Shown: positions 2,175 to 64,000 of the stretch, piece after piece
Layout of the letters: every line of letters starts with the position of its first letter
Numbering within the stretch: position 1 is the first letter of the stretch
Assembly: GCA_035506715.1 (NCBI GenBank)
Contig: DATJOW010000095.1
Location: forward strand, 5,393 to 69,392
Reading direction: 5' to 3'
Source of the DNA: Candidatus Acidiferrum sp.
Lineage (GTDB): Bacteria > Verrucomicrobiota > Verrucomicrobiia > Limisphaerales > UBA11358
DNA length: 64,000 nt
Program-made: the position numbers and the translations under genes
The notes under the pieces: generated by a model
Seen by the model: only the letters and a program-made list of their open reading frames with translations
The model's database searches: none
What the model was told of the DNA's origin: nothing

Positions 2175-2555
2175 TCAGCCGACGCGAAAGGAGATGCGCT
2201 GGATCAGGTTCCGGCCGAAACTGTGCTGCAGCCGGTCGAGGATTTCCTTGCGGCGATAACGGACAATTTCCGAAAGCCAGACGCTGCTGTCCACGTTCAC
2301 GAACAACGTCCCGTTCCGGATGCCCGCCGGCTGCGCGTGCGCGACGATGTTCGGGTCGATGAGCGAATTCCAGACCTTGATGATTTCCGCCTCGGCCTGC
2401 CGCTGGTCGAGGCGCAAGCCCTTCGTCACACCCGGCAGCAGGTCATCCACGCGGCGCGCCCGTACGGCCCGCGCGGTTTCCAGCGGGGCGAAATCCGCGC
2501 CGCGCCATTGCGCGAGGACGCGCTGGCGGGCGGATATCTTCTTTGGCGCTGGCAT
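2175..2555 (-). CDS. DUF721 (DciA-like) domain protein
   Basis: IIKVWNSLIDPNIVAHAQPAGIRNGTLFVNVDSSVWLSEIVRYRRKEILDRL matches the DUF721 core pattern. I prefer the ATG at 2555 over the TTG at 2573 used by the ORF track. Confidence 0.6.
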   Translation of the reverse strand: MPAPKKISARQRVLAQWRGADFAPLETARAVRARRVDDLLPGVTKGLRLDQRQAEAEIIKVWNSLIDPNIVAHAQPAGIRNGTLFVNVDSSVWLSEIVRYRRKEILDRLQHSFGRNLIQRISFRVG

Positions 2556-2579
2556 GGCTCCGATTTGCCCCAATCTGGA

Positions 2580-2607
2580 CTGAAAACCGAACGCTGAAAA
2601 CCGAAAA
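2580..2607. repeat. Heptamer-phased tandem array CTGAAAA CCGAACG CTGAAAA CCGAAAA (14-nt unit x2)
   Basis: Read directly from the sequence. On the minus strand it is TTTTCGG TTTTCAG CGTTCGG TTTTCAG, immediately upstream of the DUF721 start. It is followed by the small GC hairpin GATCGCCG(2614-2621)/CGGCGATC(2630-2637). Confidence 0.7.
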
Positions 2608-2691
2608 CTCTCCGATCGCCGCCCCCGGCCGGCGATCCGGCGGCGACTTTTGGGCTTGCAATTTTATACTTTGTGTGGCAAAGTCATTGAC

Positions 2692-4565: not shown

Positions 4566-6136
4566 ATCCGTTTACTTCCTGGTTTGAAAAGGTGCCCGAC
4601 GATCCGTTCTATCAGCCGCGCCCGCCGCTTTGGTTGCCGCGCGAAATGTCGGAGGCGCCGTCCCTGCCGGCGCCTTTGCCCGGCCGCCGGCCGGAACCAC
4701 GGACATCGCTGCTGATCAATCCGTTTTATGCCAAATCTCCCCACGGAAGTTTTGGCAAGCACGTGCTTACGCCGACGCTCGCGCTGACATCGGTGGCCGG
4801 CGCGACCCCGGCGCACTGGCAAGTGCGTTACTGGGATGAAAATCTGTTGCAGGGCCCGCCACCGAACGAGCCCTTGCCGGAGGTGGTGGGCATCACGGTG
4901 CACCTGACGTTTGCCCGGCGGGCGTACGAGCTGGCGGCGTGGTACCGCGCCCAGGGGAGCAGGGTCATTCTCGGCGGCCTGCATGTTCAATCCTGCCCGG
5001 CGGAGGTAGCGCCGCACGCCGATGCGGTGGCCATCGGCGATGGTGTCCAGCTTTGGCCCGAAATCCTAAACGATGTTGAACACGGCCGGTTGAGACCGCG
5101 CTACGAGGCGACTTATGAGCGGCCTTATGCGCTCGACCCGCCGCCGCGCCGTGATTTGCTTGCGCGCAACAGCTATTTGACGACCGCCAGCCTCATCGCC
5201 ACGCGCGGCTGCCACAATCGCTGCGATTTTTGCTACCTGTCCACCGAAGGCCTGCGGATGCCCTACCGCGTGCGCGACCCGGAAGACATCCGCCGGCAGT
5301 TCGCCGCCGACGGCCAGCCCTACGCCGTGTTCATTGACAATAATCTGGGTTCGCAGCACGACTATCTGCGCAAGCTCTGCCGTGCTCTGCGGCCGGCAAA
5401 AAAAATCTGGAGCGCGGCGGTCACCCTCGATGTCACGGATGAGCCGGCCCTCGTGCGGGAAATGGCGCTGGCCGGCTGCACCGGCGTGTTCATCGGGTTC
5501 GAGTCGCTCACGGATGAAAATCTCACGGCGGCGCGGAAACGCACGCCGCGGGCGGAGGATTATGCGCGGCGGGTCCGTCTTTTTCATGAGCATGGCATCC
5601 AGGTCAATGGCAGCTTTGTCGTCGGGTTCGACGGTGACAGCAAGGATACCTTCCCGACGCTGGTCCAATGGATCGAGGCCAACCGGATGGAATGCGCCAC
5701 GTTCCACATTCTGACGCCGTATCCGGGGACGCCGCTGTTCCGGCGGCTGGAAGCCGAGGGACGGCTGTTGCATCGCGACTGGGAGAAGTACGACACCGCG
5801 CACGTGGTCTTCCGCCCGAAGCGGCTCACACCGGAGGAGTTGTTGCTGGGCTATGACTGGCTCTACCGGCGGTTGTTCTCGCACGCCTCCATCTGGCGGC
5901 GGCGGCCGGCGGAACTCGCGGCGCTGCCCGCTTATTTCGCCGGCAGCTATCTCTACAAGCGGTCAAACCGGCTCTGGCGTTTCCTCATTCGACATCAACT
6001 GGTTCACGCCGCCTGGCGGCCGCTGGTGGAAGTGACCCGCTGGCGGCACCTGGCCTTCCGCCGCCGCCTGGCAGCCCGGTTGGAAACGCAAAAAGGTCCA
6101 GCGGTTTGCGGAACGCCCTTTCCGGCCAGCGTATGA
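4562..6136 (+). CDS. B12-binding-domain radical SAM protein (class B)
   Basis: N-terminal Rossmann-like B12-binding region (LLINPFY...VVGITVHL...VILGGLH), then the radical SAM motif RGCHNRCDFCY. Its start overlaps the ispH stop (ATGA). Confidence 0.8.
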   Translation: MNPFTSWFEKVPDDPFYQPRPPLWLPREMSEAPSLPAPLPGRRPEPRTSLLINPFYAKSPHGSFGKHVLTPTLALTSVAGATPAHWQVRYWDENLLQGPPPNEPLPEVVGITVHLTFARRAYELAAWYRAQGSRVILGGLHVQSCPAEVAPHADAVAIGDGVQLWPEILNDVEHGRLRPRYEATYERPYALDPPPRRDLLARNSYLTTASLIATRGCHNRCDFCYLSTEGLRMPYRVRDPEDIRRQFAADGQPYAVFIDNNLGSQHDYLRKLCRALRPAKKIWSAAVTLDVTDEPALVREMALAGCTGVFIGFESLTDENLTAARKRTPRAEDYARRVRLFHEHGIQVNGSFVVGFDGDSKDTFPTLVQWIEANRMECATFHILTPYPGTPLFRRLEAEGRLLHRDWEKYDTAHVVFRPKRLTPEELLLGYDWLYRRLFSHASIWRRRPAELAALPAYFAGSYLYKRSNRLWRFLIRHQLVHAAWRPLVEVTRWRHLAFRRRLAARLETQKGPAVCGTPFPASV

Positions 6137-14302: not shown

Positions 14303-14821
14303 ATGCGCGGACCGGATCTTGAACGGCTCTACGACGAGCACGCCCAGTCGCTTTACGCTTTTCTCCTGCATCTCACCCGCGACGAGGCCGATACCCGGGA
14401 TTTGCTCCAAGAGGTCTTCATTAAACTGGCCCGCCATCCGGAATGGTTGGACGGCGTCCGCGACGAGCGCGCGTTCCTTATCCGGCTGGCGCACAATGCA
14501 GCGATTGACCTCATGCGCCGGCGCGGCGTACGGGAGCGGGCCCGGGACAACTGCGCCAGAGAAACTTCTTCTCTCTTTGCCCCCGCCCCGGATCCGGACA
14601 CGGAAATCTTTCGCGAGGAACTGTCGCGGGCGCTGGCCGAACTGCCGCCGGAGCAACGGGCCGTGGTGCATTTGAAGTTGTGGGCCGGTCTGACCTTCGA
14701 GGAAATCGCCGACACCCAGGAGATTCCGCTCAACACGGCGGCCAGCCGGTACCGCTATGGTCTAGACAAATTGCGCGAGCGGCTGCGTCCTCTTTACGAA
14801 GAAATGAAGCAGGCAGAATGA
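14303..14821 (+). CDS. ECF-type RNA polymerase sigma factor
   Basis: Region 2 (DLLQEVFIKLA...FLIRLAHNAAIDLMRRR) and region 4 (LPPEQRAVVHLKLWAGLTFEEIADTQEIPLNTAASRYRYGLDKLR). Confidence 0.9.
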   Translation: MRGPDLERLYDEHAQSLYAFLLHLTRDEADTRDLLQEVFIKLARHPEWLDGVRDERAFLIRLAHNAAIDLMRRRGVRERARDNCARETSSLFAPAPDPDTEIFREELSRALAELPPEQRAVVHLKLWAGLTFEEIADTQEIPLNTAASRYRYGLDKLRERLRPLYEEMKQAE

Positions 14822-15252
14822 TGAATGAAGAAACGGAACCGTTTGAACGGCGCTTGAGCCGTCAGCCATTGCGGCAGATTCCCGCCGGCTGGCGCAAGGA
14901 AATCCTGGGCGAGGCGGACAAGGTAGGGACAGCGCGTCGCGCTGTCCGCGGACGCCGCAGCGCGGCGTCCCTACCCGACTGGATTTCAAATTTGCTGTGG
15001 CCTCATCCCGCCGCCTGGGCGGGGCTGGCAGCAGTTTGGCTTGTTGTACTTGCCGTGAACGTTTCGATCCGCGACCGCGCACCGGCGCTGGCGGAAAAAT
15101 TCACGCCGCCGCCGGAAGTAATGGTGGAACTGAAACGACAGCAACGGTTGCTGGCGGAGTTGATCGGACCGCGCGAGGCCCGTGATGCCGACCGCGCCAA
15201 ACCGTTGGTGCCGCGGCCGCGAACGGAGAGCGGCGAGTTTGTGGCGGTGTGA
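14818..15252 (+). CDS. Putative single-pass anti-sigma factor
   Basis: The ATG at 14818 overlaps the sigma stop (ATGA). One TM segment (AAWAGLAAVWLVVLAVNV). The call rests on position only; no conserved anti-sigma motif was recognised. Confidence 0.5.
   Translation: MMNEETEPFERRLSRQPLRQIPAGWRKEILGEADKVGTARRAVRGRRSAASLPDWISNLLWPHPAAWAGLAAVWLVVLAVNVSIRDRAPALAEKFTPPPEVMVELKRQQRLLAELIGPREARDADRAKPLVPRPRTESGEFVAV
14922..14975. repeat. REP-like nested palindrome (54 nt) inserted in frame in the anti-sigma gene
   Basis: Outer stem GGTAGGGAC/GTCCCTACC encloses two perfect hairpins: GACAGCGCG-t-CGCGCTGTC (its outer GAC is shared with the 3' end of the outer-stem arm) and GGACGCCGC-agc-GCGGCGTCC. It translates as VGTARRAVRGRRSAASLP. 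Confidence 0.75.
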
Positions 15253-15348: not shown

Positions 15349-17109
15349 ATGAATGAAGAACCCAAAAGCATCTGGAAAAAATCGTTGACCGGCTGGTGCA
15401 TCCTGTCCGTTGTCGCGTTGCTTCTGGCTTTCGCGGGATTTCTAGCGGCGCTGGCGAGCAGTCTATTTCATTTCGACAACAGCAAACTTTTCGGCCTGTC
15501 TTTTTTTGTCAACTGGCTGATTCTCACCATTGGCGCGGCAGCCACCTTTCTGGTGTTGATCCTGCTCTTCCGCTTCATCCGGTGGCTGTATTGTTGGCGT
15601 AACTTCAAGCGATTTCTTTTCGCGGTCGCGTGTCTGGCCACACTGATCGCGTTGTTCTACGCCGAGGAAGACTGGCGCGGCAAACATGCCTGGGAAACAT
15701 TCAAACGCGAGTGGGAGGCCAAAGGCGAACGTTTCGATCGCGCCAGCGTGGTTCCGCCGCCGGTGCCGGACGACCAGAATTTTGCGCTGACGCCGATTGT
15801 CTTTACCAGTTACGGCCAATTGCTGACGCGCGACGGGAAATTCATTCCCTGGGCTGAACGCGACACCAACTTCGTCAACCGGCTGCAAGTGAACATTGGT
15901 GGCCCCCAGCCCTGGCCGACCAATGGTGATTGGCGCCTGGCGCGCGTCAGCGATTTAAGCGCCTGGCAACAGTATTATCGGGCCCTGGCCGCCAAAACGA
16001 ATCAGTTCCCCGTCCCGCCCCAACCGGTATCGCCCGCCGCCGATGTCCTCTTCGCGTTGGGCAAGTACGATTCAACGATCGAGGAGCTGCGGCAAGCCGG
16101 CCAACTGCCTGATTCACGTTTTCCGCTGGAATATGACAAGGATGACCCGGCGGCGATGCTGTTGCCGCACCTAGCGCCGCTGAAAAATTGCGCCCAGGTT
16201 TTACAATTGCGCGCCTTGGCGGAATTGCAGAACGGCCAAAGCGACCGGGCGCTGGCCGACGTAAAACTCATTTTGCGCCTGGCGGATTCGCTCCGCTCGG
16301 AGCCCATTCTGATTTCGCAGCTGGTCCGCGCTGCACTGGTGAATCTCGCGCTCCAGCCGATCTGGGAGGGGCTCCGGCAACGCCAATGGTCGGACGCCCA
16401 ATTGATCGAACTGGGAAATGACCTGGCGAAGACAGATTTTTTGGCTGCCAGCGAACTTGCCTTGCGCGGAGAACGCATCTGGGGTGTTGAAATCATAGAA
16501 TATTTGCGACATTTGACTTACCGGGAAAGGCTGCGCACCCTTTCCGCTTTTGGCAGCAATCTCAAACTCGAGGACGAAATTTTCCTTTGTCTCGGCCCGG
16601 CTGGATGGTTTGACCAAAGCGAACTCCGAATTAGTCGTTTCCTTCTCCGGCACTATTCGCCGGTGGTAAATCTTGACCGGCAAATAGTTTCTCCTGTTGC
16701 TGTGCGAAACGCGGATGAGGCATTCGGCGCGGAAGTTGGCCATTCCGGCAATGGTAATTTTTTTGAGCGATTATTACTGTCGGCCGCGGGCAACGTAGTG
16801 GAGAAATTAGCCTGCGGGCAAAATGCGGTGAACCTGGCGCGTACGGCCTGTGCGTTGGAGCGTTACCGCCTCGCGCATGGCCAATATCCGGAATCGCTGG
16901 ACGCGCTGGTGCCGCAATTCATCGCCCAGCCGCTGCATGATGTCATCAACGGCCAACCGCTGCATTATCGACGCACGAATGATGGCCAATTCGTCCTTTA
17001 TTCCGTCGGCTGGAACGAGACGGATGACGGCGGGGAAGTCGGCTTCACCAAACAAGGCGGTCTGGACATCAGCACCGGTGACTGGGTCTGGCAGTATCCG
17101 CAGAAATAA
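15349..17109 (+). CDS. Membrane protein, unknown function, with a GspG-like C-terminal motif
   Basis: Three N-terminal TM helices. The C-terminus LHYRRTNDGQFVLYSVGWNETDDGGEV resembles the conserved C-terminal sheet of type II secretion pseudopilins. Confidence 0.5.
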   Translation: MNEEPKSIWKKSLTGWCILSVVALLLAFAGFLAALASSLFHFDNSKLFGLSFFVNWLILTIGAAATFLVLILLFRFIRWLYCWRNFKRFLFAVACLATLIALFYAEEDWRGKHAWETFKREWEAKGERFDRASVVPPPVPDDQNFALTPIVFTSYGQLLTRDGKFIPWAERDTNFVNRLQVNIGGPQPWPTNGDWRLARVSDLSAWQQYYRALAAKTNQFPVPPQPVSPAADVLFALGKYDSTIEELRQAGQLPDSRFPLEYDKDDPAAMLLPHLAPLKNCAQVLQLRALAELQNGQSDRALADVKLILRLADSLRSEPILISQLVRAALVNLALQPIWEGLRQRQWSDAQLIELGNDLAKTDFLAASELALRGERIWGVEIIEYLRHLTYRERLRTLSAFGSNLKLEDEIFLCLGPAGWFDQSELRISRFLLRHYSPVVNLDRQIVSPVAVRNADEAFGAEVGHSGNGNFFERLLLSAAGNVVEKLACGQNAVNLARTACALERYRLAHGQYPESLDALVPQFIAQPLHDVINGQPLHYRRTNDGQFVLYSVGWNETDDGGEVGFTKQGGLDISTGDWVWQYPQK

Positions 17110-17110
17110 A

Positions 17111-17245
17111 AGCTCCAAGCTCCAACATCCAAGCTCCAGAGAAATCTCAAGCCTCAAGCGCCAAACCAAAACCATCATCGCCGCGTTTTCTTGTTTGGCT
17201 GTTGGAATTTCTCTGGAGCTTGGTGCCTGGAATTTGGGGGTTTTT
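17111..17245. repeat. Long imperfect inverted repeat built from period-7 units
   Basis: Left arm: AGCTCCA AGCTCCA ACATCCA AGCTCCA GAGAAAT CTCAAGC CTCAAGC GCCAAAC. The 17-nt core CCAAGCTCCAGAGAAAT (17129-17145) is perfectly complementary to 17207-17223. The element ends in GGGGGTTTTT. Confidence 0.75.
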
Positions 17246-17275
17246 ATCCATACCCATCCGTGGTTAAATGGCCTC

Positions 17276-21565: not shown

Positions 21566-21588
21566 TCTGGGCCAAGACCAAACGACCA

Positions 21589-21620
21589 CCCCCTTCCGCT
21601 AAAATCGGGAGGGGGTTTTT
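21589..21620 (+). terminator. Rho-independent terminator of the porin gene
   Basis: CCCCCTTCCG-ctaaaat-CGGGAGGGGG followed by TTTTT. Confidence 0.75.
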
Positions 21621-21715
21621 ATTTGCATTTACGATTTACGATTTACGATTTACGATTGCTCCGGGGCTCCGAAACGGTGGGAAAATCACAAATCATCAAT
21701 CGTAAATCATAAATG
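21621..21715 (+). repeat. Heptamer-array element: (ATTTACG)x4-ATTGC, 22-nt spacer, inverted array GGAAAAT CACAAAT CATCAAT CGTAAAT CATAAAT
   Basis: Read directly. The last unit plus G forms TAAATG, which contains the metF start (21713). It is homologous to the element at 36343..36419. Confidence 0.8.
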
Positions 21716-22606
21716 CCCGTTCATTTCATTCGCGACATTTACGCAGCCAAAGGGGCGGCCAAACAGCCGGTCATCTCTTTTGAATTTTTCCCTCCTAAAA
21801 CAGAGGAAGGGGACCGCGCCCTGCTGGAACGCCAGGTCCCGGCCCTGTTGGCGGCCCGGCCGGATTTTTGTTCCGTCACCTACGGCGCCGGCGGCAGCAC
21901 GCGCGACAAGACGCTGATGATTGTGGACCGCATTCAGCGGCAATACGGGTTGACGACGCTGGCGCATCTGACCTGTGTGGGCCACACCCGGGCGCAGGTG
22001 CAGGAGCTCCTGGAGAAAATCCGTGGGTTGGGCTGTAAAAATATCCTGGCCTTGCGCGGCGATCCTCCGGCGGGCGGCGTTTTTCAGCCGGCTCCCGGCG
22101 GTTTCGAATTCGCCGGGCAACTGGTCCGGCTCATCCGTGACGCGGGTGACTTCTCCATCGGGGTCGCCGGCTTTCCCGAGGGGCACCTTGCCTGTCCGGA
22201 CGGCAAGCAGGCCGACTGGTGGCACTTGCGCGAAAAGGTGGAGGCTGGCGCGGACTTTGTGCTGACCCAGCTGTTCTTTGACAACGCGGATTATTTTGAA
22301 TTTCGGGAGTACGTTGGCGGCCGCCTGGGGGTCCGCGTGCCATTGGTCCCGGGAATTGTGCCCATCCTGAGCGCCGGCCAAATCACAAAATTCATCCAGG
22401 TCTGTGGCGCCAAAATCCCGCCGCCGCTGCGCACCCGGCTTGATCAATTGGCGGAGGACGATGAGGCCGCCGCTGAATTTGGCATCGAGTACGCCACCCG
22501 CCAGTGCCAGGATTTGTTGCGGGCAGGCGTGCCCGGGTTGCATTTTTACACGCTGAACAAATCGCGGTCCACCGTCCAGGTGCTGAAGAACCTCGGTCTG
22601 GCCTGA
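21713..22606 (+). CDS. metF: 5,10-methylenetetrahydrofolate reductase MetF
   Basis: ISFEFFPPKT, VTYGAGGSTR, LTCVGH, TQLFFD motifs. 297 aa. Confidence 0.9.
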   Translation: MPVHFIRDIYAAKGAAKQPVISFEFFPPKTEEGDRALLERQVPALLAARPDFCSVTYGAGGSTRDKTLMIVDRIQRQYGLTTLAHLTCVGHTRAQVQELLEKIRGLGCKNILALRGDPPAGGVFQPAPGGFEFAGQLVRLIRDAGDFSIGVAGFPEGHLACPDGKQADWWHLREKVEAGADFVLTQLFFDNADYFEFREYVGGRLGVRVPLVPGIVPILSAGQITKFIQVCGAKIPPPLRTRLDQLAEDDEAAAEFGIEYATRQCQDLLRAGVPGLHFYTLNKSRSTVQVLKNLGLA

Positions 22607-32783: not shown

Positions 32784-32930
32784 AGACTAAAAGTGACGCA
32801 TTCGCCCCGGTTGCCAAGTTCAAAATGCCGCCCCAACGCGAAGAGGCTTTGTCCGGATGGATTTGCATGGTAAATTGCACGGGCCGAAATGAGCGTCACC
32901 ATCCAGTCTGAACCGGCAGGAGAGCAAACT

Positions 32931-32958
32931 CCGCCATCCGCCATCCGCCATCCGCCCT
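32931..32958. repeat. Heptamer tandem array (CCGCCAT)x3 + CCGCCCT inside the U32 N-terminus
   Basis: Read directly. Translates as PPSAIRHPP. Confidence 0.7.
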
Positions 32959-33822
32959 TGCCGGAGTTGCTCGCGCCCGCTGGGGACTGGGATTGCGTAC
33001 GCGCCGCGGTCGAGAACGGCGCCGATGCGATTTATTTCGGCCTCGAAAAATTCAACGCCCGGATGCGGGCGCAGAACTTCACCTCGGCCGATCTGCCTTG
33101 CTTGATGGATTTTCTGCACCGGCGCGGCGTGCGCGGCTATGTCACTCTCAACACGCTGGTTTTTGAGCAGGAACTCGCCGACGCCGAAAAATATTTGCGC
33201 ACGATGATCGCCGCCGGGGTGGACGCCGTCGTGGTCCAGGATGTGGGCATCTGCCGGCTGATCCGGCGGCTTTCGCCCGATTTACCGATTCACGCTTCGA
33301 CCCAGATGACCATCACCAGCGCCGCCGGCGTGGATTTCGCCCGCGACCTCGGCTGCAGCCTGGTCGTGCTCGCCCGCGAATGTTCCATCAAGGAAATCGA
33401 GAAAATCCAAGCCATACAAGGCAAGGCGGGCCGTCTCTTGCCCGCCGTATCCTCCTTTACCAACGACGGCGCGATAGCGACATCGCGCCCCACCATTCTC
33501 CCCCTGGAAGTTTTTGTCCACGGCGCTCTCTGCGTTGCTTACTCGGGCCAATGCCTGACCAGCGAGGCGCTCGGTGGTCGCTCGGCCAACCGCGGCGAAT
33601 GCGCCCAAGCCTGCCGCATGCCTTACGAACTCCTGTCCGACGGGCAACTCGTGCCGCTGGGTGACCGGAAATATCTGCTGAGCCCGCAGGACCTGGCCGG
33701 GCTGGACGTGTTGCCGGAATTGATTCGAGCGGGCGTGGCCTCGCTGAAAATCGAGGGCCGGCTCAAATCCCCCGAATACGTGGCGAATATCACGCGGATT
33801 TACCGCCAAGCGCTGGATAATT

Positions 33823-33890
33823 GCGGAATGCAGAATGCGGAATGTGAAATGCTATCTGCCTCAGCCAGTCCGAAATCCGAAATCCGAAAT
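33823..33890. repeat. Paired heptamer arrays GCGGAAT GCAGAAT GCGGAAT GTGAAAT / 19-nt spacer / (CCGAAAT)x3, at the U32 frameshift
   Basis: Read directly. Total length is 68 nt, which is not a multiple of 3. The left arm has 4 units and the right arm 3. Confidence 0.8.
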
Positions 33891-34649
33891 ATGAGATGGA
33901 GATGGCTTTCTCCCGCGGCTTGCACACCGGCTGGTTCGGCGGCACCAACAATCAGCAACTCGTACACGCCCGCTTCGGAAAAAAACGCGGGGTCTATCTC
34001 GGTGAAGTGAAAAAGGTTTTGCGCGACGCGGTTGTGGTCAAACTGAAAGGCCCGTTGAAGCCGGGCGACGGCGTGGTGTTTGACGCCGGCAAGCCGGCGG
34101 AACCCGAGGAGGGCGGGCGGGTTTACGAAATCCGAAAGGCAAGGCGCGGTGTCCCTACCGCGCCGAAAGCACGGCTCGCTACGGAGGGCGAGCCCCACCA
34201 GGTCGAACTCCATTTCGGCCGCGGCGACATCCATTTCGCGCGCGTTCACGTCGGCGACAAACTGTGGAAGACCAGCGACCCGGAACTGGACCGACGCCTC
34301 CGCCAAAGCTTCGCCGGTGCTACGCCCAGATTCCAGCGACCGATTGAAATCGAAGTGCACGGCATCGCCGGCAAGGCGCTGACCCTGATTGCCCATGATG
34401 AATTCGGCAACATTGCCAAAGTGGAATCATCCATGCCGCTGGCCCGGGCGGATAAACATCCGCTCACGACGGACCGTTTGCGCGAACAATTGGGCCGGTT
34501 GGGGGGCACGCCGTTCCGGCTCGGTGGGTTAAAAAACCTTTTGTCGGGTGACGTGCTGCTGCCGGTCAGCGAGCTGAATCGCTTGCGCCGCGAAATCGTC
34601 GGCGAACTGGAAAGGCGGCGCACCCAGCCTAAGCGTTGGACGCTTTCTG

Positions 34650-34733
34650 ATTGCCGGTTGCCGGTTGCCGATTGCCGATTGAGCGACGATGCGGGCGCAG
34701 CCAAAAATCCGCAATCCGCAATCCGCAATCCGC
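34650..34733. repeat. Paired inverted heptamer arrays ATTGCCG GTTGCCG GTTGCCG ATTGCCG / 28-nt spacer / (AATCCGC)x4, in frame inside the U32 gene
   Basis: 84 nt = 28 codons. Translates as DCRLPVADCRLSDDAGAAKNPQSAIRNPQ. The arms are complementary at 5-6 of 7 positions per unit. Confidence 0.8.
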
Positions 34734-34873
34734 AATTGATTGTTCTGGTCCGCAACCTGCCCCAACTCGAAGCCGCGCTGAAATGCGGGGTGACAACCGT
34801 CTATTGCGAATTTGAAGACCCCAAGAAATACCGCGACGCGGTCACGCTGTTCCACGCGGCCTTCGATCGCCAA

Positions 34874-34930
34874 GGTAGGCCGGGCGGTCCTCTGCCCGCC
34901 GGCGGCGCGCACGGAGTGACGCGCCCTACC
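34874..34930. repeat. REP-like nested palindrome (57 nt), in frame inside the U32 gene
   Basis: Outer stem GGTAGG/CCTACC. Inner hairpin GGCGCG-cacggagtga-CGCGCC plus an imperfect CCGGGCGG/CCCGCCGG hairpin. Translates as GRPGGPLPAGGAHGVTRPT. Confidence 0.65.
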
Positions 34931-35627
34931 ATCTGGGTTGCGCCTCCAAGAATTTTCAAGCCGGGCGAGGACTGGACGCTGGAACAGGTGCGCTCCGGCA
35001 ACGCCGATGGTTATTTAATCCGCAATTACGATCACTTGAAATTCTTCGCGAACGACCGGCGCGTCGGTGATTACTCGCTCAACATCGCCAACCGGCTGGC
35101 GGCGGATTATTTCAAGAACCCATGCGGCCTGGAGCGGGTGACGGCGAGCTACGATTTGAATTTCCAGCAGCTCGAAGCGTTGTTGACCGCCGCGCCGCCC
35201 GAGTGGTTCGAGGTGACCATCCACCAGCACATGCCGATGTTTCACATGGAGCATTGCGTGTTCTGCGCGTTCCTTTCCACCGGCACGGACTTCCGGAACT
35301 GCGGCCGCCCCTGCGACGTGCACGACGTGAAGCTGCGCGACCGCATGGGCGCGGAGCATCCGGTGAAGGCCGACGTCGGCTGCCGCAACACGGTGTTCAA
35401 CGCGCTGGCCCAGACCGGCGCGGAATATGTGTCGCGGATGATCGAACTGGGCGTGCGACATTTCCGCGTGGAATTCCTCAACGAAGCGCCGGAACAGGTG
35501 ATGCAAACCATTGCCAAGTATCATCAGCTATTGCGCGGTGAAATCACCGGCACGCAGCTCTGGCGCAAATTGAAACTGTTCAACCAGCTCGGCGTCACCC
35601 GGGGGCAAATCGGGAAGTAGAACAGGC

Positions 35628-36338: not shown

Positions 36339-36342
36339 GGTG

Positions 36343-36419
36343 ATTTACGATTTACGATTTACAATTTACGATTGCAACTCAATTTCAACGCCGCCCGTGT
36401 CAAGCGTCAATCGTAAATG
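36343..36419 (+). repeat. Second copy of the heptamer-array element: ATTTACG ATTTACG ATTTACA ATTTACG ATTGC, spacer, CGTCAAT CGTAAAT
   Basis: Shares (ATTTACG)n-ATTGC and the 12-mer TCAATCGTAAAT with 21621..21715. Its TAAATG contains the start of the AddA-like gene (36417). The left end begins 4 nt from the radC start codon. Confidence 0.8.
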
Positions 36420-39400
36420 GCATCATCGAACAAAGACAAAAACCCTCTGACCGAGGCGCAGCGGGAAGCCGTGAAAGCGCGCGGCAACGTGCTCGTCATG
36501 GCCGGCGCCGGCACCGGCAAAACCCACACTCTGGTCGAGCGCTGCCTGCATTGCCTTTGCGAGGAGCGGCCGCCCGCGTCGCTCGAGGAAATCGTCGTCG
36601 TTACCTTCACCGAAGCCGCCGCCGCCGAGATGCGCCAGCGCCTGCGCGAGCGGCTGGAGGAAAAACTCAAGGCGGAGCCCGACGAACCGCGCTGGGTGGA
36701 ACAGCTCACCCTCTTCGACACGGCCCACATTGGCACGCTCCACAGCTTCTGTCTTAAGCTCATCCGCGAACATTTCCATGCCCTCGGCCTCGATCCGCAG
36801 CTGGCCGTGCTCGACGAGGGTGAGGCCCGGCTGCTCGCCGAGGAAACGCTCGAAGCCGAATTGCAGGGCCACTACGCCGGCAAAAGCGAGCCGGCCAAAG
36901 CCGTTCAGCAATTGATCCAGGTTTACGGGGGCGGGCGTGACGAGGCCATCCGCCGGCTGGTCCTGCGACTGCACCACTACGCCCAAACCCGGCCCGATGC
37001 CGACGGCTGGCTGGCGCGGCAGATTGAAAAATTTTCGGTCCCTACCCCGGACGAGTGGCAAAAGTGGCTGCTCGCGGCGATTCAGGATTGGCGCGACGAA
37101 TGGCTGCCGGCTCTGGCAGCCCTTGGAACGCCGAACTCCAATTCGGCACGTTTCCGGGCGGATGACCTTCAAGGCGAACCGGAGTTCGGCGCTCCACCGG
37201 CAAACGAGAAAGCCGCCGAAATGGAGGGTGTTCTCCGGTTGTTGCCCGCTGATTTTTCGCGCGAAGCCGCCGCTGAAATTCTGGCGCAAATCATCGCCGC
37301 CGATGGTCAATGGCCGGCAAAACGCAAAACCGTCTTGCGCAAACCGCTGGCCGGCTTTTTTGATGACGCCCGTTTTCTCCTCTCCCTCGCGGCGGTTAAA
37401 AACGGCGCCGATCCGCTGGCTGAAGACTGGGCCCCGATCCGGAGCCACATGGACGCATTGCTGCGCCTGACTCAGGGGTTTGCCGCCCGGTTCGCGGCCC
37501 GCAAGCGCGAGGAGGGCGTCCTGGATTTCCACGACCTGGAACAATTCGCCCTGAAACTGCTCTGGGATTCTTCGACGGGCCGGCCGAGCGCCATCGCCGG
37601 CCGCTGGCGGGAAAAAATCCGGTTTGTCTTCGTGGACGAATACCAGGATATCAACGCCGCGCAGGATAAAATCATCCAAGCGTTGAGCCGGGAGGGATCC
37701 GCGGCGAATCGCTTCCTGGTTGGCGATGTGAAACAAAGCATTTACCGGTTCCGGCTGGCTGACCCGGAAATTTTCCGCACCTACGCTCAAACCTGGCGCG
37801 GCAAAAAGGGCCGGACCATCCCGCTCACCGAAAACTTTCGCAGCCGCGAGGGCTTGCTCGATTTCGTCAATGCGGTCTTCCAGCCGCTCCTGCGCGAGGA
37901 CATCGGCGGCATTGGCTATGACGCCGAGGCGCAATTGCAGTTTGGCGCGCCGCAGTCGCGCACTCCGCTTGGCACCGCCACCGATCCGGCGCCGCGCGCC
38001 GAATTGCTTCTGCGCCTCAAGTCCGGCCGCGATGACACGGCGTCGGGCGACAGCGATGGCGACGACGAACTCGCGGATTTGCTGGACACGGAGAAGGAGG
38101 CGCGCTGGCTGGCGCAGCGGCTGAAAGAATTGCACGAGGCCGGGCATAGAATTGTCTGGGACGAGAAACAACAGGTTTCCCGTCCAGCGGAATGGCGCGA
38201 CATGGCGGTGTTGTTGCGGGCGCCGGCCGGCAAAGCGGAAGTTTATGCGAAGGAATTCCAGGGCGCCGGGGTGCCGCTGGTCGTCGCGCGCGGCGGGTTC
38301 TATGACAGCAGCGAAATTCTGGATTTGCTGAGCCTGCTGCAATTGCTTGACAACCCTTTGCAGGACGTGCCGGTCATTGCGGTGCTGCGGTCGCCGCTGG
38401 TGGGGCTGTCGCTTGACGAGCTTGCTCAAATCCGGCTGGCGGCCAGGGGCCATTTCTGGACGGCGCTGAACCGAGCGCGGGTTGCGGATTGCGGATTACG
38501 GAAGGAAACGACGCACAAAATCGGAAAATTTCTGGAGCGGTTCCCGCGCTGGCGGCGACTGGCGCGGCAGGGATCGCTGTCACAGTGTCTGGAAAGCGTG
38601 CTGGGGGAAACGTTTTACGCCGACTGGCTGGCCGCCCGGCCGCGCGGAGCGCAGCGGCGGGCCAAGATTGAGCGCCTGCTGGCGCTGACGCAAAAGTTCG
38701 ATCAATTGCCGCGGCAGGGGCTGTTCCGCTTCCTGCAATTTATCGAAGCGCAGCGCGAGACCGGGGCTGAACCGGAGGTCGGCGCGGTTCCCGGCGAAGA
38801 TGCAGTGCGGCTGATGAGCATCCACCAGAGCAAGGGTTTGGAGTTCCCGATCGTCGCGCTGGCCGACCTCGCAAAACCGTTCAACACCCAGGAGCTTCGC
38901 AGTGAAATCATTTTGGATGGAACCTACGGCCTTTGCCCAATTGTCCAGTCCCGGAATCGGATGTCAGGTTATCCCAGCCTGCCGCACTGGCTGGCACGGT
39001 CGCATCAGCGCCGCGAACAATGGGGCGAGGAATTGCGCCTGCTCTACGTCGCCCTGACCCGAGCCCGCGATTTTCTCCTCCTGACCGGCACCGTTTCCAA
39101 AAAGAAAGGGGAGATGCTGGGGACCGGGTCCCCGCCCTTGACGACCCCCGCCATCCTCGCGGCCAACAGTTATGCTGACTGGCTCGGCTTATGGTTGGGC
39201 GGACAGCCGGCTCCAAATGGGATCGGCGGCAACTTGCCGTATTTGCGCTGGCGGCTGGCGGAGGATGCCGAATTGCTGGTGGAATCACCGGGAGCAGCGG
39301 TGGAATCAGGACCGCCGGCTTGGGACCCGCAAACCGGGCCGGCCCTGCAAAAGAGGCTGGCCTGGGATTATCCGTTCGCCGCAGCCACCCGCCGCGCGGC

Positions 39401-61667: not shown

Positions 61668-62084
61668 CAAAAAAACAAGGCCAACCACCTGAAACCGATG
61701 AACCAATCCAAATTCTCCTGACACGACTGTGAGCAAACAGAACAGGAAAAGACGGAGATAATGGAGATCAGAGCTGGTGGGTTCCGTGTTTTAACGAATT
61801 CCAGAGGGCTCACCAATCCGCGAACGTTGACCGGTGAGACAAATCTGATTTTTGACCTGTTTCAGGCCTTGGTTTCCTCTGATTGCTCAGGTTCAACTGA
61901 ATCTTCCCGGTTCAGGGTATAGCTGTAGAAATGCCACCTTGTTCGCCAGGTCGCGGAAGCGTTTCTGAAGAATGTTCGATTTTTTTGGCCCAATTGCGGA
62001 CGAAACGGCGCCTAACTGATTAGGACAGAGAAGTTCGTTCTAACCAACAAGTCTGTGAAAACGACAATCAATGAAGAGGTTATT

Positions 62085-64000
62085 ATGAAAAAGACCGAGA
62101 AAACTATCAAACCCAACAGTCTTTTCCGGCGGCTGGCCGGGACTTTGACAGGTGTTCTGCTGTGGCTAGGCGTCCTGCCTCTGGCCGCGCTCGGCCAGGC
62201 CAACTACGCCACCCCCTACACCTTCATCACCATCGCCGGGAAAAGCTTCTATGGTAGCGCGGACGGGACGAATGGCGCCGCGCAGTTCGCTTTTCCTTTC
62301 GGCACGGCGGTGGACAGCGCGGGCAATATCTTCGTGGCGGACGCAGCGAACTGCACGATTCGGGAAGTGACGCCGGTCGGAACCAATTGGGTAGTGACGA
62401 CCTTGGTCGGACAGGCGGGCAGCGCCGGCACCAATGACGGGACGGGGAACGCCGCGCGGTTCAACGGCCCTGGCGGTGTGGCCGTGGACACGAGCGGCAA
62501 CGTCTATGTGGCGGACACAGGCAACCACACGATCCGAAAAGTGACGCCGGTGGGCGCGAATTGGGTGGTGACGACCCTGGCCGGACTGGGTGGCAGTGCC
62601 GGCAGCGCGAACGGGACGGGGAGTGCCGCCCGGTTTTATTTTCCTCAGGACGTGGCGGTGGACAGCGCGGACAACGTGTATGTGGCGGACTCACTCAACG
62701 ACACCATCCGCAAAGTGACACCAGCGGGGGCAGTGACGACCCTGGCCGGACTGGCGTTCACTGAAGGCACGTCCGACGGAACGGGGAGCGCCGCCCGGTT
62801 CCACTTTCCTCTTGGCGTCACGGTGGATAGCGGGGGCAACGTCTATGTGGCCGACACAGCCAACGCCACCATCCGCAAAGTGACGTCAGCGGGTGTGGTG
62901 ACGACCTGGGCGGGACTGGCGGGCTATAGAGGAACCAACGACGGCACGGGGAACGCCGCGCGGTTTAGCGGGGCGGTTGGCGTGACAGTGGACAACGCCG
63001 GCAACCTCTATGTCGCGGATTACATGAACAATACGATTCGACAAGTGACCCCGGCGCGGCTGGTGACGACCCTAGCCGGCGGGCCGGGCTACAATGCAGG
63101 GAGCGCGGACGGGACGGGGAATGAGGCGCAGTTTTCTTATCCTTATGGCGTGGCGGTGGACAGCGCAGGCAACGTCTACGTGGCGGACACAGGCAACGAC
63201 ACGATCCGGGAAATAATGCCGGTCGGACCCAATTGGGTGGTGACGACGATCGCCGGACACCCAGGCGTTGCCGGCAGCGCGAACGGGACTGGAACCGCCG
63301 CGCGGTTTAACGGGCCTTACGACGTGGCGGTGGACAGTCTGGGCAACCTTTATGTGGCGGACGATTTGAACGACACGATCCGGAAAGTGACGCCGGTCGG
63401 ACCTAATTGGGTGGTGACGACGATTGCCGGATACCCAGGGGTTGACGGCAGCGCGAACGGGACGAACAGCGCCGCGCGGTTTAATTATCCTCAGGGTGTG
63501 GCGGTGGACAACGCGGGTAATCTCTATGTGGCGGATCAAAACAACTCCACCATTCGGGAGGTGGCGCCGGTCGGAACCAATTGGGTGGTGACGACGATTG
63601 CGGGATCCCCAGGTCGTCCTGGCAGCGCGGACGGGACGAACAACGCCGCGCGGTTTTATTATCCTAAGGGCGTGGCGGTGGACACGAACGGCAATGTCTA
63701 TGTGGCGGACCAATTCAACGACACGATCCGAGAAATAACGCCGGTTGGAACGAATTGGGTGGTGACGACTCTGGCCGGACTGGCAGGCGATCATGCCAGC
63801 GCGGACGGGACGAACAGTGCCGCGCGGTTTGCTTATCCTCAGGGTGTGGCGGTGGACAGCGCAGGCAATCTCTATGTGGCGGATGGTGACAACTTCTCAA
63901 TCCGCAAAATGACGCCGGTCGGAACCAATTGGGTAGTGACGACCCTCGCTGGTCAGTCGGGCTATTTTGCCGAGATAGACGGGACGGGGAGCGCCGCGCG
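62085..64000 (+). CDS. Secreted NHL-repeat beta-propeller protein (3' end beyond the window)
   Basis: Open-ended, so absent from the ORF track. ATG at 62085, signal peptide ...LLWLGVLPLAALGQA. At least ten units of xGxADGTGxAARFxxPxGVAVDxxGNxYVADxxNxTIRKVTPxGxxWVVTTLAG. All listed minus-strand ORFs here are shadows. Confidence 0.85.
   Translation, partial: MKKTEKTIKPNSLFRRLAGTLTGVLLWLGVLPLAALGQANYATPYTFITIAGKSFYGSADGTNGAAQFAFPFGTAVDSAGNIFVADAANCTIREVTPVGTNWVVTTLVGQAGSAGTNDGTGNAARFNGPGGVAVDTSGNVYVADTGNHTIRKVTPVGANWVVTTLAGLGGSAGSANGTGSAARFYFPQDVAVDSADNVYVADSLNDTIRKVTPAGAVTTLAGLAFTEGTSDGTGSAARFHFPLGVTVDSGGNVYVADTANATIRKVTSAGVVTTWAGLAGYRGTNDGTGNAARFSGAVGVTVDNAGNLYVADYMNNTIRQVTPARLVTTLAGGPGYNAGSADGTGNEAQFSYPYGVAVDSAGNVYVADTGNDTIREIMPVGPNWVVTTIAGHPGVAGSANGTGTAARFNGPYDVAVDSLGNLYVADDLNDTIRKVTPVGPNWVVTTIAGYPGVDGSANGTNSAARFNYPQGVAVDNAGNLYVADQNNSTIREVAPVGTNWVVTTIAGSPGRPGSADGTNNAARFYYPKGVAVDTNGNVYVADQFNDTIREITPVGTNWVVTTLAGLAGDHASADGTNSAARFAYPQGVAVDSAGNLYVADGDNFSIRKMTPVGTNWVVTTLAGQSGYFAEIDGTGSAA

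Follow-up and report, generated by a model that had tools for sequence, protein, structure and literature searches.

A 64,000-nt stretch of contig DATJOW010000095.1 (GenBank assembly GCA_035506715.1), referred to as the window, was analyzed for short tandem arrays of seven-nucleotide units, which occur along it both between and within genes and which were the subject of an earlier prediction made from the sequence alone (the original prediction). Annotation with Pfam showed the window to be a housekeeping region, which encodes DciA, LytB, radical SAM enzymes, an ECF sigma factor, a beta-CASP RNase, T2SS-F, a BBP2 porin, MTHFR, the Mla system, MMPL, YebC, a U32 peptidase, RadC, a UvrD/AddA-like helicase-nuclease, a diacylglycerol (DAG) kinase, a two-component system, an RND efflux pump, a Ser/Thr kinase with WD40 repeats, and an NHL-repeat protein. 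The closest protein homologs were all found in metagenome-assembled genomes (MAGs) of Verrucomicrobiota/Limisphaerales, and the gene order matched that of Verrucomicrobiota contigs; the NCBI label of the source MAG, 'Candidatus Acidoferrum sp.' (Acidobacteriota), is probably the result of mis-binning or mislabelling.

Repeats in the 64-kb window were located using Tandem Repeats Finder (TRF), which returned 13 rows at period 7 among approximately 30 short repeats. Each array listed in the original prediction was matched by a TRF row at the same place or a few bases off, and two further rows, at 14798-14832 and 39247-39261, had been missing from it. The arrays, the gene that holds most of the intragenic ones, and one decayed arm that lacks a TRF row of its own are listed below; L203, L204, and L205 are loci from near-identical strains.

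2582-2608, minus strand: weak single array of TTTTCGG/TTTTCAG/CGTTCGG units (TRF period 7, 3.9 copies, 70% matches, score 33).
14798-14832, plus strand: weak GAAGAAT-like array (TRF, 67% matches) at the 3' end of the ECF sigma factor gene.
17110-17138, plus strand: (AAGCTCC)x4.1, of another unit family (TRF), directly after the stop codon of open reading frame (ORF) 15349-17109.
21627-21657, plus strand: left, G-rich-sense arm (ATTTACG)x4.4 (TRF, 100% matches), between the BBP2 porin and MTHFR genes.
21683-21714, plus strand: right arm of degenerate CGTAAAT-type units, x4.6 (TRF), the last unit overlapping the MTHFR ATG (21713).
32889-35620, plus strand: U32 peptidase gene (U32 + DUF3656 + U32 by Pfam), split into ORFs 32889-34010 and 33896-35620.
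32930-32956, plus strand: (CCGCCAT)x3.9, read in frame as part of the U32 peptidase's short N-terminal tail (peptide ...PPSAIRHPP...).
33822-33852, plus strand: left arm of site 2 inside the U32 gene, degenerate (ATTGCGG AATGCAG AATGCGG AATGTGA AATGC).
33869-33890, plus strand: right arm of site 2, (TCCGAAA)x3, polymorphic, with three units in the window and L203 and four units in L204 and L205.
34649-34681, plus strand: left arm (GATTGCC/GGTTGCC)x4.7, which keeps the frame of the linker joining DUF3656 to the second U32 domain.
34706-34736, plus strand: right arm (AATCCGC)x4.4, in frame (peptide ...KNPQSAIRNPQ...).
36342-36373, plus strand: left arm (GATTTAC)x4.6, in the intergenic region between the divergent radC and helicase genes.
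36400-36416, plus strand: decayed right arm CGTCAATCGTAAAT, which ends directly at the helicase ATG (36417).
38477-38502, plus strand: single array GTTGCGG ATTGCGG ATTACGG, in frame in the UvrD/AddA-like helicase-nuclease gene (peptide ...RVADCGLRK...).

A strict test, which required three units with at most one mismatch per 14 comparisons, was applied to the window and to 50 dinucleotide-preserving shuffles of it. Seven strict arrays were found at period 7, compared with a shuffle mean of 0.0 and a maximum of 0 (n = 50 shuffles), and no excess over shuffles was found at periods 4-6 and 8-13; exact runs likewise numbered seven at period 7 and zero at periods 4-6 and 8-13. The comparison with other periods and shuffled sequence that had been proposed along with the original prediction singled out period 7 within the window, and heptamer arrays are present in the window far beyond chance. 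Most of the units fit the single family that had been proposed, ATTKMSG (ATTTACG, ATTGCGG/AATGCGG, ATTTCGG, ATTGCCG, and ATTACGG). The CCGCCAT unit is one step from this family, the array at 14798-14832 lies outside it, and AAGCTCC is unrelated to it. Copy numbers of the window arrays ranged from 3.7 to 4.7 (TRF), and units such as ATTTACG, ATTGCGG, ATTTCGG, and ATTGCCG contained GG at most, with no tract of three or more G residues. About eight of the arrays are intergenic and five lie within ORFs, at 32930, 33822/33869, and 34649/34706 in the U32 peptidase gene and at 38477 in the helicase gene; intergenic placement is therefore not general. Four facing pairs were recognized (21627/21683, 33822/33869, 34649/34706, and 36342/36400), each with ATTKMSG units on the plus strand in its left arm and the complement of these in its right arm.

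The U32 peptidase gene provided direct evidence of change in an array. Homologs of this peptidase are single proteins of 870-990 aa, two of which (P0016 and P0074) keep their frame across a heptamer pair at site 2, and comparison of translations placed the frame change of the window exactly at the 33869-33890 array. Near-identical strains were obtained through exact look-up of the adjacent RadC protein. The first of these (L203) was 100% identical to the window and carried the same split gene. The second (L204) differed from the window over 10,177 nt solely by one extra TCCGAAA unit (four rather than three), with no single-nucleotide polymorphisms (SNPs), and the third (L205) differed over 7,106 nt by the same extra unit and four SNPs. 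The four-unit allele, which is that of L204 and L205, encodes an intact 912-aa U32 peptidase (P0122) that was found on three contigs, and the three-unit (split) and four-unit (intact) alleles are each present in independent assemblies. Because seven is not a multiple of three, a change of one unit inside a gene shifts the frame; whole-unit gain or loss at this array is real and toggles the reading frame of the gene. The original prediction had called for an active process acting on the arrays, and one-unit slippage between the window and L204/L205 bears this out. It had also held that gene-centered annotation would miss the arrays, and NCBI indeed annotates two separate U32 fragments here. A restart ATG at 33896, immediately 3' of the array, could still allow both halves of the peptidase to be produced.

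The remaining strain comparisons were quiet. A fourth locus (L207), which spans the arrays at 14798, 17110, and 21627/21683, differed from the window over 11,407 nt by three SNPs and no indel, and the arm at 21683-21714 had the same sequence in both. The TCCGAAA indel was the only one in about 28.7 kb of strain comparison. Two other closely related pairs of loci that were compared for indels (L001/L002 and L003/L004) were identical or differed by SNPs only, and the other near-identical pairs among all fetched loci showed indels of 1-3 nt, none of which fell in a heptamer array.

The linker at site 2, defined as the sequence between the conserved peptides YVANITRIYR and EMAFSRG, was extracted from 82 orthologous loci, in which its length varied from 54 to 183 nt. 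It was in frame in 81 of the 82, the window being the sole exception. Period-7 arrays were present at this site in 25 orthologs and absent from the other 57, and their units belonged to the families ATTGCGG/CCGMAAT, AATGACG/CGTAAAT, GGTCGAG/CTCGACC, GTGACGA/TCGTCAC, and GTTGAAA/TTTCAAC. The two arms within one ortholog were usually mutual reverse complements, with a G-rich 5' arm and a C-rich 3' arm in 24 of the 25. The right arm is built of AAATCCG in the window and in L001 and of AAATACG in L003, each version being homogeneous internally; that one pair should have such different units in close relatives indicates concerted turnover in place. The arms of L003 are only about 4/7 complementary. 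Both L001 and L003 carry five arrays per 22 kb, all inside the U32 gene. At the position of the N-terminal array (32930-32956), orthologs have CCGCAAT or CCGCCAT units. A start at a TTG before the peptide PELLAPAG, which would put this array in a true 5' leader, was considered and rejected, as the preceding codon is CGN (Arg) in 34 of 81 orthologs; an ATG located 18-30 codons upstream is the norm among U32 orthologs. Overall, the arrays occupy places that tolerate length change (intergenic DNA and disordered protein linkers or tails, where the whole insert is kept in frame), and different species retain them at the same sites even as the units turn over in concert.

The same linkers also receive sequence of other kinds. 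Two in-frame fillers that are not heptameric were seen in the U32 gene of the window, each a GC-rich hairpin, at 33420-33494 (peptide GKAGRLLPAV..NDGAIATSRPT, z -3.2) and at 34874-34930 (peptide GRPGGPLPAGGAHGVTRPT, z -1.5). Related filler peptides of the form GRAGSPLPA..DGAHGVTRPT are found at the same hypervariable linkers of U32 orthologs, in which VGRGVPTAPKARLAAESKP, SSRGNEAHSS..LLTSAAT, and SEGRVTRVPN..GLAELAPP also recur, and three array-free orthologs (L126, L128, and L130) have other palindromic inserts at the site-2 linker (z -5 to -8). The lineage seems to tolerate several families of in-frame palindromic insertions. At site 2 of L155 (about 4944-6000), an outer AGTGCGG/ATTGCGG ... 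CCGCACT/CCGCATT pair surrounds an inner (TCGTCAC)n array, a nested arrangement in which one repeat family has been inserted, or has arisen, inside another.

The preference for period 7 was also evident in 735 kb of orthologous loci that had been chosen without regard to any unit. Strict arrays in this set numbered 87 at period 7, compared with 22 at period 5, 23 at period 6, 9 at period 8, and 4 at period 9, and their copy number had a mode of four (16 arrays of three units, 40 of four, 20 of five, and 3 of six). When four consecutive ATTKMSG units were searched for with one genome per species, the matches listed included Acidobacteriota, Planctomycetota, Verrucomicrobiota, Bacteroidota, Chloroflexota, Nitrospirota, Gemmatimonadota, Desulfobacterota, Cyanobacteria, Firmicutes, and Spirochaetes, together with at least 120 stretches in viral contigs, and the feature is thus not private to this genome. 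A uniquely favored status for ATTKMSG was rejected, as composition-matched permuted controls gave 39, 46, and at least 120 stretches in viral contigs against the at least 120 of ATTKMSG; it is among the commonest heptamer families, of which many exist.

Pair polarity was counted after all de-duplicated loci had been pooled, using adjacent arrays within 150 nt of each other. The order G-rich then C-rich was found in 65 pairs and the order C-rich then G-rich in 4 (binomial p = 3e-15). Among the 65, complementary arms were present in 44 and unrelated units in 21; polarity was kept in the pairs with unrelated arms (21 vs 0) and in viral contigs taken alone (16 convergent vs 0 divergent). The proposal that intergenic copies point toward the adjacent start codon was replaced by this convergent-pair rule. 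Directional growth of individual arrays was tried as an explanation and rejected, because the outer and inner edges were equally sharp: residual unit identity past the edge was 0.34 (outer) vs 0.30 (inner; p = 0.28), and for isolated arrays the two values were 0.32 and 0.31. In one IMG/VR viral contig region that is represented on opposite strands by two loci (L291 3489-3617 and L323 2063-2191), (ATTGACG)n faces a plant-type telomere-like (TTTAGGG)n/(CCCTAAA)n repeat across a 70-nt AT-rich spacer.

Taken together, the arrays are probably heptanucleotide long simple sequence repeats (SSRs) of a kind known from many non-pathogenic bacteria with large genomes, dominated by ATTKMSG, which reside in a Verrucomicrobiota (Limisphaerales-like) host and change by slippage. 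Units would be gained and lost by slipped-strand mispairing during replication. The complementary arms of a pair can form a hairpin, and fold-back or template-switch copying between arms may have given rise to the paired geometry and the arm complementarity; such fold-back copying would be easier when the folded strand is G-rich. Neither a transposase nor a dedicated repeat-adding enzyme would lie behind the pairs, and the arrays would be mostly neutral or selfish passengers, which influence mRNA structure or translation only incidentally, at places where they adjoin a start codon.

Several observations weigh against this explanation. A single slippage event was observed, and the other arrays covered by the strain comparisons were identical between strains. 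Plain slippage predicts neither the four-unit mode nor the strong G-to-C polarity, which extends to the pairs with unrelated arms, and it does not explain the presence of the same unit family in distant phyla and viral contigs. Units from one locus resembled each other slightly more than units from different loci did (2.02 vs 2.54 mismatches, p = 0.0005), and three loci (L112, L217, and L236) each have two copies with at least partly related spacers at different sites with different flanks, both of which hint at some dispersal. The fold-back origin of the pairs, finally, is a step that we infer.

In one alternative, the pairs are non-autonomous mobile palindromic elements similar to transposable elements of the miniature inverted-repeat type (MITEs), repetitive extragenic palindromic (REP) doublets forming hairpins (REPINs), or bacterial interspersed mosaic elements (BIMEs), with inverted arms built of heptamers; a transposase whose gene lies elsewhere in the genome or on viruses would spread them, and slippage would modify them only afterwards. 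This alternative would be favored by the finding of one architecture and one unit family, among the matches listed, both in many phyla and in viral contigs, by the slightly greater likeness of units within a locus, by the duplicated copies of L112, L217, and L236, and by the other palindromic inserts in the U32 linker of L126, L128, and L130. However, the defined ends and target-site duplications of MITEs and REPINs were not seen: no target-site duplication flanked 55 of 61 pairs, the remainder having direct repeats of 2-3 nt that are at chance level, and palindromy had zero extension beyond the arms in 44 of the 61. The spacers range from 0 to 204 nt and are unrelated in sequence, even the two ATTTACG pairs of the window having different ones, and the arms themselves are unrelated in 21 pairs. 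Arrays also stay at orthologous sites while their units turn over in situ. No transposase, REP-associated tyrosine transposase (RAYT), reverse transcriptase, or other candidate repeat-making enzyme is encoded within the 64-kb window. Mobile elements are thus an unlikely source of the pairs, and the dedicated nuclease or recombinase that had been suggested as one possible agent found no support either, there being none in the window and the pairs having no target-site duplications, conserved ends, or conserved spacers. An IS3-type transposase pair (HTH_Tnp_1 + rve) with an extra ORF was observed between the U32 gene and radC in L001/L002 (12979-14153); both are absent from the window and from L003.

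Selection could instead maintain the arrays as cis-acting elements, for example as 5'-leader or hairpin RNAs that control translation or mRNA stability, or as sites for a protein that binds heptamers in single-stranded form, a role that has been proposed for TAACTGA repeats. The location of some arrays is suggestive in this respect, as C-rich-sense arms abut the starts of the MTHFR, helicase, and radC genes, the arm at 36342-36373 being 3 nt from the radC start (36338, minus strand). When starts of ATG-initiated ORFs were counted within -6 to +10 nt of the array end in all loci, they were found at 10.1% of C-rich-sense arrays, 5.8% of G-rich-sense arrays, and 3.6% of random positions. The tendency of C-rich-sense arrays to lie at start codons is therefore real but modest. 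There is also a precedent, as TAACTGA repeats occur near start codons and CspB binds heptamers (PMC4679880). Many arrays, on the other hand, lie inside coding linkers, and those of site 2 are missing from 57 of 82 orthologs.

The folding of the pairs was mixed. The 21627/21683 pair (21620-21720) forms a strong hairpin, with -30.2 kcal/mol (z -3.9) for plus-strand RNA and -43.5 kcal/mol (z -7.1) for minus-strand RNA; the MTHFR gene beside it was identified by its Pfam match, and the genes on both sides are on the plus strand. Where the 21683-21714 arm departs from the unit, the change is mostly a transition, and only minus-strand RNA gains G-U pairs from it. A role of this pair as the porin terminator is unlikely, because a separate canonical intrinsic terminator with a T-tract already exists at 21588-21616, just upstream. 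The 34649/34706 pair gave a z of -2.2, and the fold of the 36342/36400 pair is now insignificant (z about -0.5). Relative to shuffles, many of the site-2 inserts have much stronger folds (z as low as -7), whereas others, including that of the window, have decayed to z near 0. A conserved hairpin was rejected as a generally selected feature, given that z is close to 0 for two of the window's four pairs, that the L003 arms have lost much of their complementarity, and that 21 pairs have unrelated arms. A known RNA family was rejected for the arrays, as Rfam gave 0 matches in the window at gathering thresholds. In view of the decayed pairs, the lost complementarity, and the modest enrichment at start codons, selected cis-acting function is an improbable explanation.

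In view of the preference for period 7, the four-unit mode, the polarity that extends to unrelated arms, and the shared units, along with the sharp edges and arbitrary spacers, a small probability is reserved for a different origin of the facing G-to-C pairs, namely that they are the footprint of a widespread, undescribed directional process. One possibility is that breaks are healed by reiterative synthesis of short repeats at 3' ends followed by end joining, which by analogy might leave head-to-head arrays resembling the scar of a telomere-telomere fusion; another possibility is a conserved single-strand-binding factor that recognizes the G-rich strand.

It is very unlikely that the U32 array is an adaptive contingency locus, selected for reversible, high-frequency switching of the peptidase. 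The array does lie inside an ORF, its unit length is not a multiple of three, and a one-unit polymorphism toggles the frame between near-identical strains. Yet only one event was seen, 81 of 82 orthologs are in frame, which argues against habitual OFF states, and most orthologs have no array at site 2. The U32 gene is moreover a conserved, syntenic, housekeeping-type gene rather than a surface or restriction-modification gene, and both halves could still be made by way of the restart ATG. Chance or assembly artifact can be practically dismissed: only the weakness of the arrays at 2582-2608 and 14798-14832 speaks for it, against 0 arrays in shuffles, identical arrays in independent assemblies, conservation at orthologous sites, also in contigs that reach 1.16 Mb, and a frame kept in 81 of 82 orthologs.

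Two arrays outside the facing pairs, and one longer repeat, deserve a brief description. The array at 2582-2608, on which the original prediction was centered, proved to be the weakest (70% matches, TRF score 33) and had no significant fold. Its distance from the putative start of dciA (2175-2573, minus strand) is 9 nt; this adjoining gene had been called DUF721, and its product is DciA (Pfam PF05258). Between dciA and the next gene, this array adjoins a GC-rich imperfect palindrome at 2609-2650 (CGATCGCCGCC...GGCGATCCGGCGGCG), and TRF also reported an 11-12-nt near-duplicate at 2625-2646 within the palindrome region. The array at 17110-17138 forms the 5' arm of a long hairpin at 17105-17250 (-59.3 kcal/mol, z -7.6), the 3' arm of which reads TCTCTGGAGCTTGG... 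and is followed by GGGGGTTTTTAT (T-run). This hairpin looks like a large terminator after ORF 15349-17109, and, being C-rich first, it is an exception to the G-to-C polarity. Long coding tandem repeats with periods of 165, 174, and 348 nt occupy 62306-64000 and encode an NHL-repeat beta-propeller protein (ORF 62055-63998, nine Pfam NHL repeats), which runs past the window end.

The window reveals no new system or enzyme, and its interest lies elsewhere. Heptamer repeats are the commonest class of long SSR in free-living bacteria, and the U32 gene is a natural example of one-unit slippage breaking a conserved gene, the slippage being the sole mutation in 10 kb between two strains. Annotators will go on mis-calling genes split in this way as two proteins. 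In-frame colonization of protein linkers by the arrays is followed by long persistence, during which the units are replaced, and the four-unit mode and polarity seen across phyla in units without G-tracts place constraints on any mechanism.

Among known systems, the arrays recall the long SSRs of Mrazek, Guo and Shah (2007). As that work is described in two later papers (PMC4679880, PMC4692102), heptanucleotides are the most abundant class of long SSR with units of 5-11 nt in most genomes that have such repeats, and polymerase slippage with a footprint of roughly 7 nt was proposed as the cause. The phenomenon is thus not new; judging from these descriptions, both the excess and its explanation by slippage had been published. 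The window and the loci related to it have in common with these SSRs, as so described, an excess of tandem 7-nt units over other periods in a large, GC-rich, non-pathogen genome and length change by slip-strand events. Head-to-tail units of 5-11 nt beyond chance and whole-unit length polymorphism, the latter in one event, were both found here. They differ from the published examples, as far as these are described, in the ATTKMSG family, the Verrucomicrobiota host, the presence in in-frame protein linkers, and the spread of one unit family across phyla and viral contigs; none of these four features was found in the searchable literature, and neither were the unit's peptide translation (SAIRNPQ...) and heptamer arrays in Verrucomicrobia.

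In Xanthomonas, each genome has 70-75 convergent pairs of GGGAATC arrays, in which four units are the preferred number, a preference that was ascribed to the formation of G-quadruplexes (Rehm 2015, PMC4692102). Repeats of this type are in excess in non-coding DNA and scarce in coding regions; of the window arrays, about eight are intergenic and five intragenic. Approximately four units and close convergent arrays on opposite strands are likewise found here, whereas the Xanthomonas GGGAATC and Nostoc GGGGAYT units contain tracts of three to four G residues (PMC4692102) and the window units, with GG at most, lack any such tract. Because units without G-tracts show the same four-unit mode and polarity, the G-quadruplex is weakened as a general cause. 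Were the directional process mentioned above real, the published G-quadruplex rationale for the Xanthomonas repeats would need revision, since the four-unit mode appears in units that have no G-tracts.

The short tandemly repeated repetitive (STRR) sequences of the cyanobacterium Calothrix PCC 7601 have the units CCCCAGT, TTGGTCA, and CAACAGT. They are similar to the present arrays in being dispersed short arrays of tandem heptamers and differ from them in units and phylum, the host here being one of the Verrucomicrobiota; three tandem heptanucleotides of Calothrix are mentioned in PMC4692102. TAACTGA repeats, known from Beggiatoaceae, Cyanobacteria, and Bacteroidetes, are placed 1-43 nt upstream of start codons (MacGregor 2015, PMC4679880) in arrays of two to six units, with a patchy distribution across phyla that suggests horizontal spread. 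Almost all of them are direct arrays that stand singly and have the same orientation toward the gene, an inverted case being found once in 170 (PMC4679880). Heptamer arrays and a patchy distribution across phyla are shared with them, and three window arms abut start codons; in contrast, other units are used here, convergent pairs dominate, and adjacency to starts is modest.

In the SSR contingency loci of host-adapted pathogens, such as the heptanucleotide repeats of Haemophilus, a one-unit change toggles the frame between close strains (PMC2651432, PMC8262952), and the U32 gene offers the corresponding features of an intra-ORF repeat whose unit is not a multiple of three, a copy number that differs between strains, and a gene that is split in one and intact in the other. 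Unlike the contingency loci of pathogens, it concerns a conserved peptidase of a free-living soil bacterium, the orthologs of which nearly always keep their frame. A consensus conserved over the full length characterizes Rickettsia palindromic elements and REPIN/BIME elements, and a RAYT is the cognate transposase of REPINs. These elements resemble the present pairs as hairpin-forming inverted repeats that lie in frame in genes or between genes, but here only the 7-nt unit is shared, the spacers are arbitrary, and no transposase is evident in the window. The arrays belong with the known heptanucleotide long SSRs that form convergent pairs, and their architecture is that of the Xanthomonas repeats.

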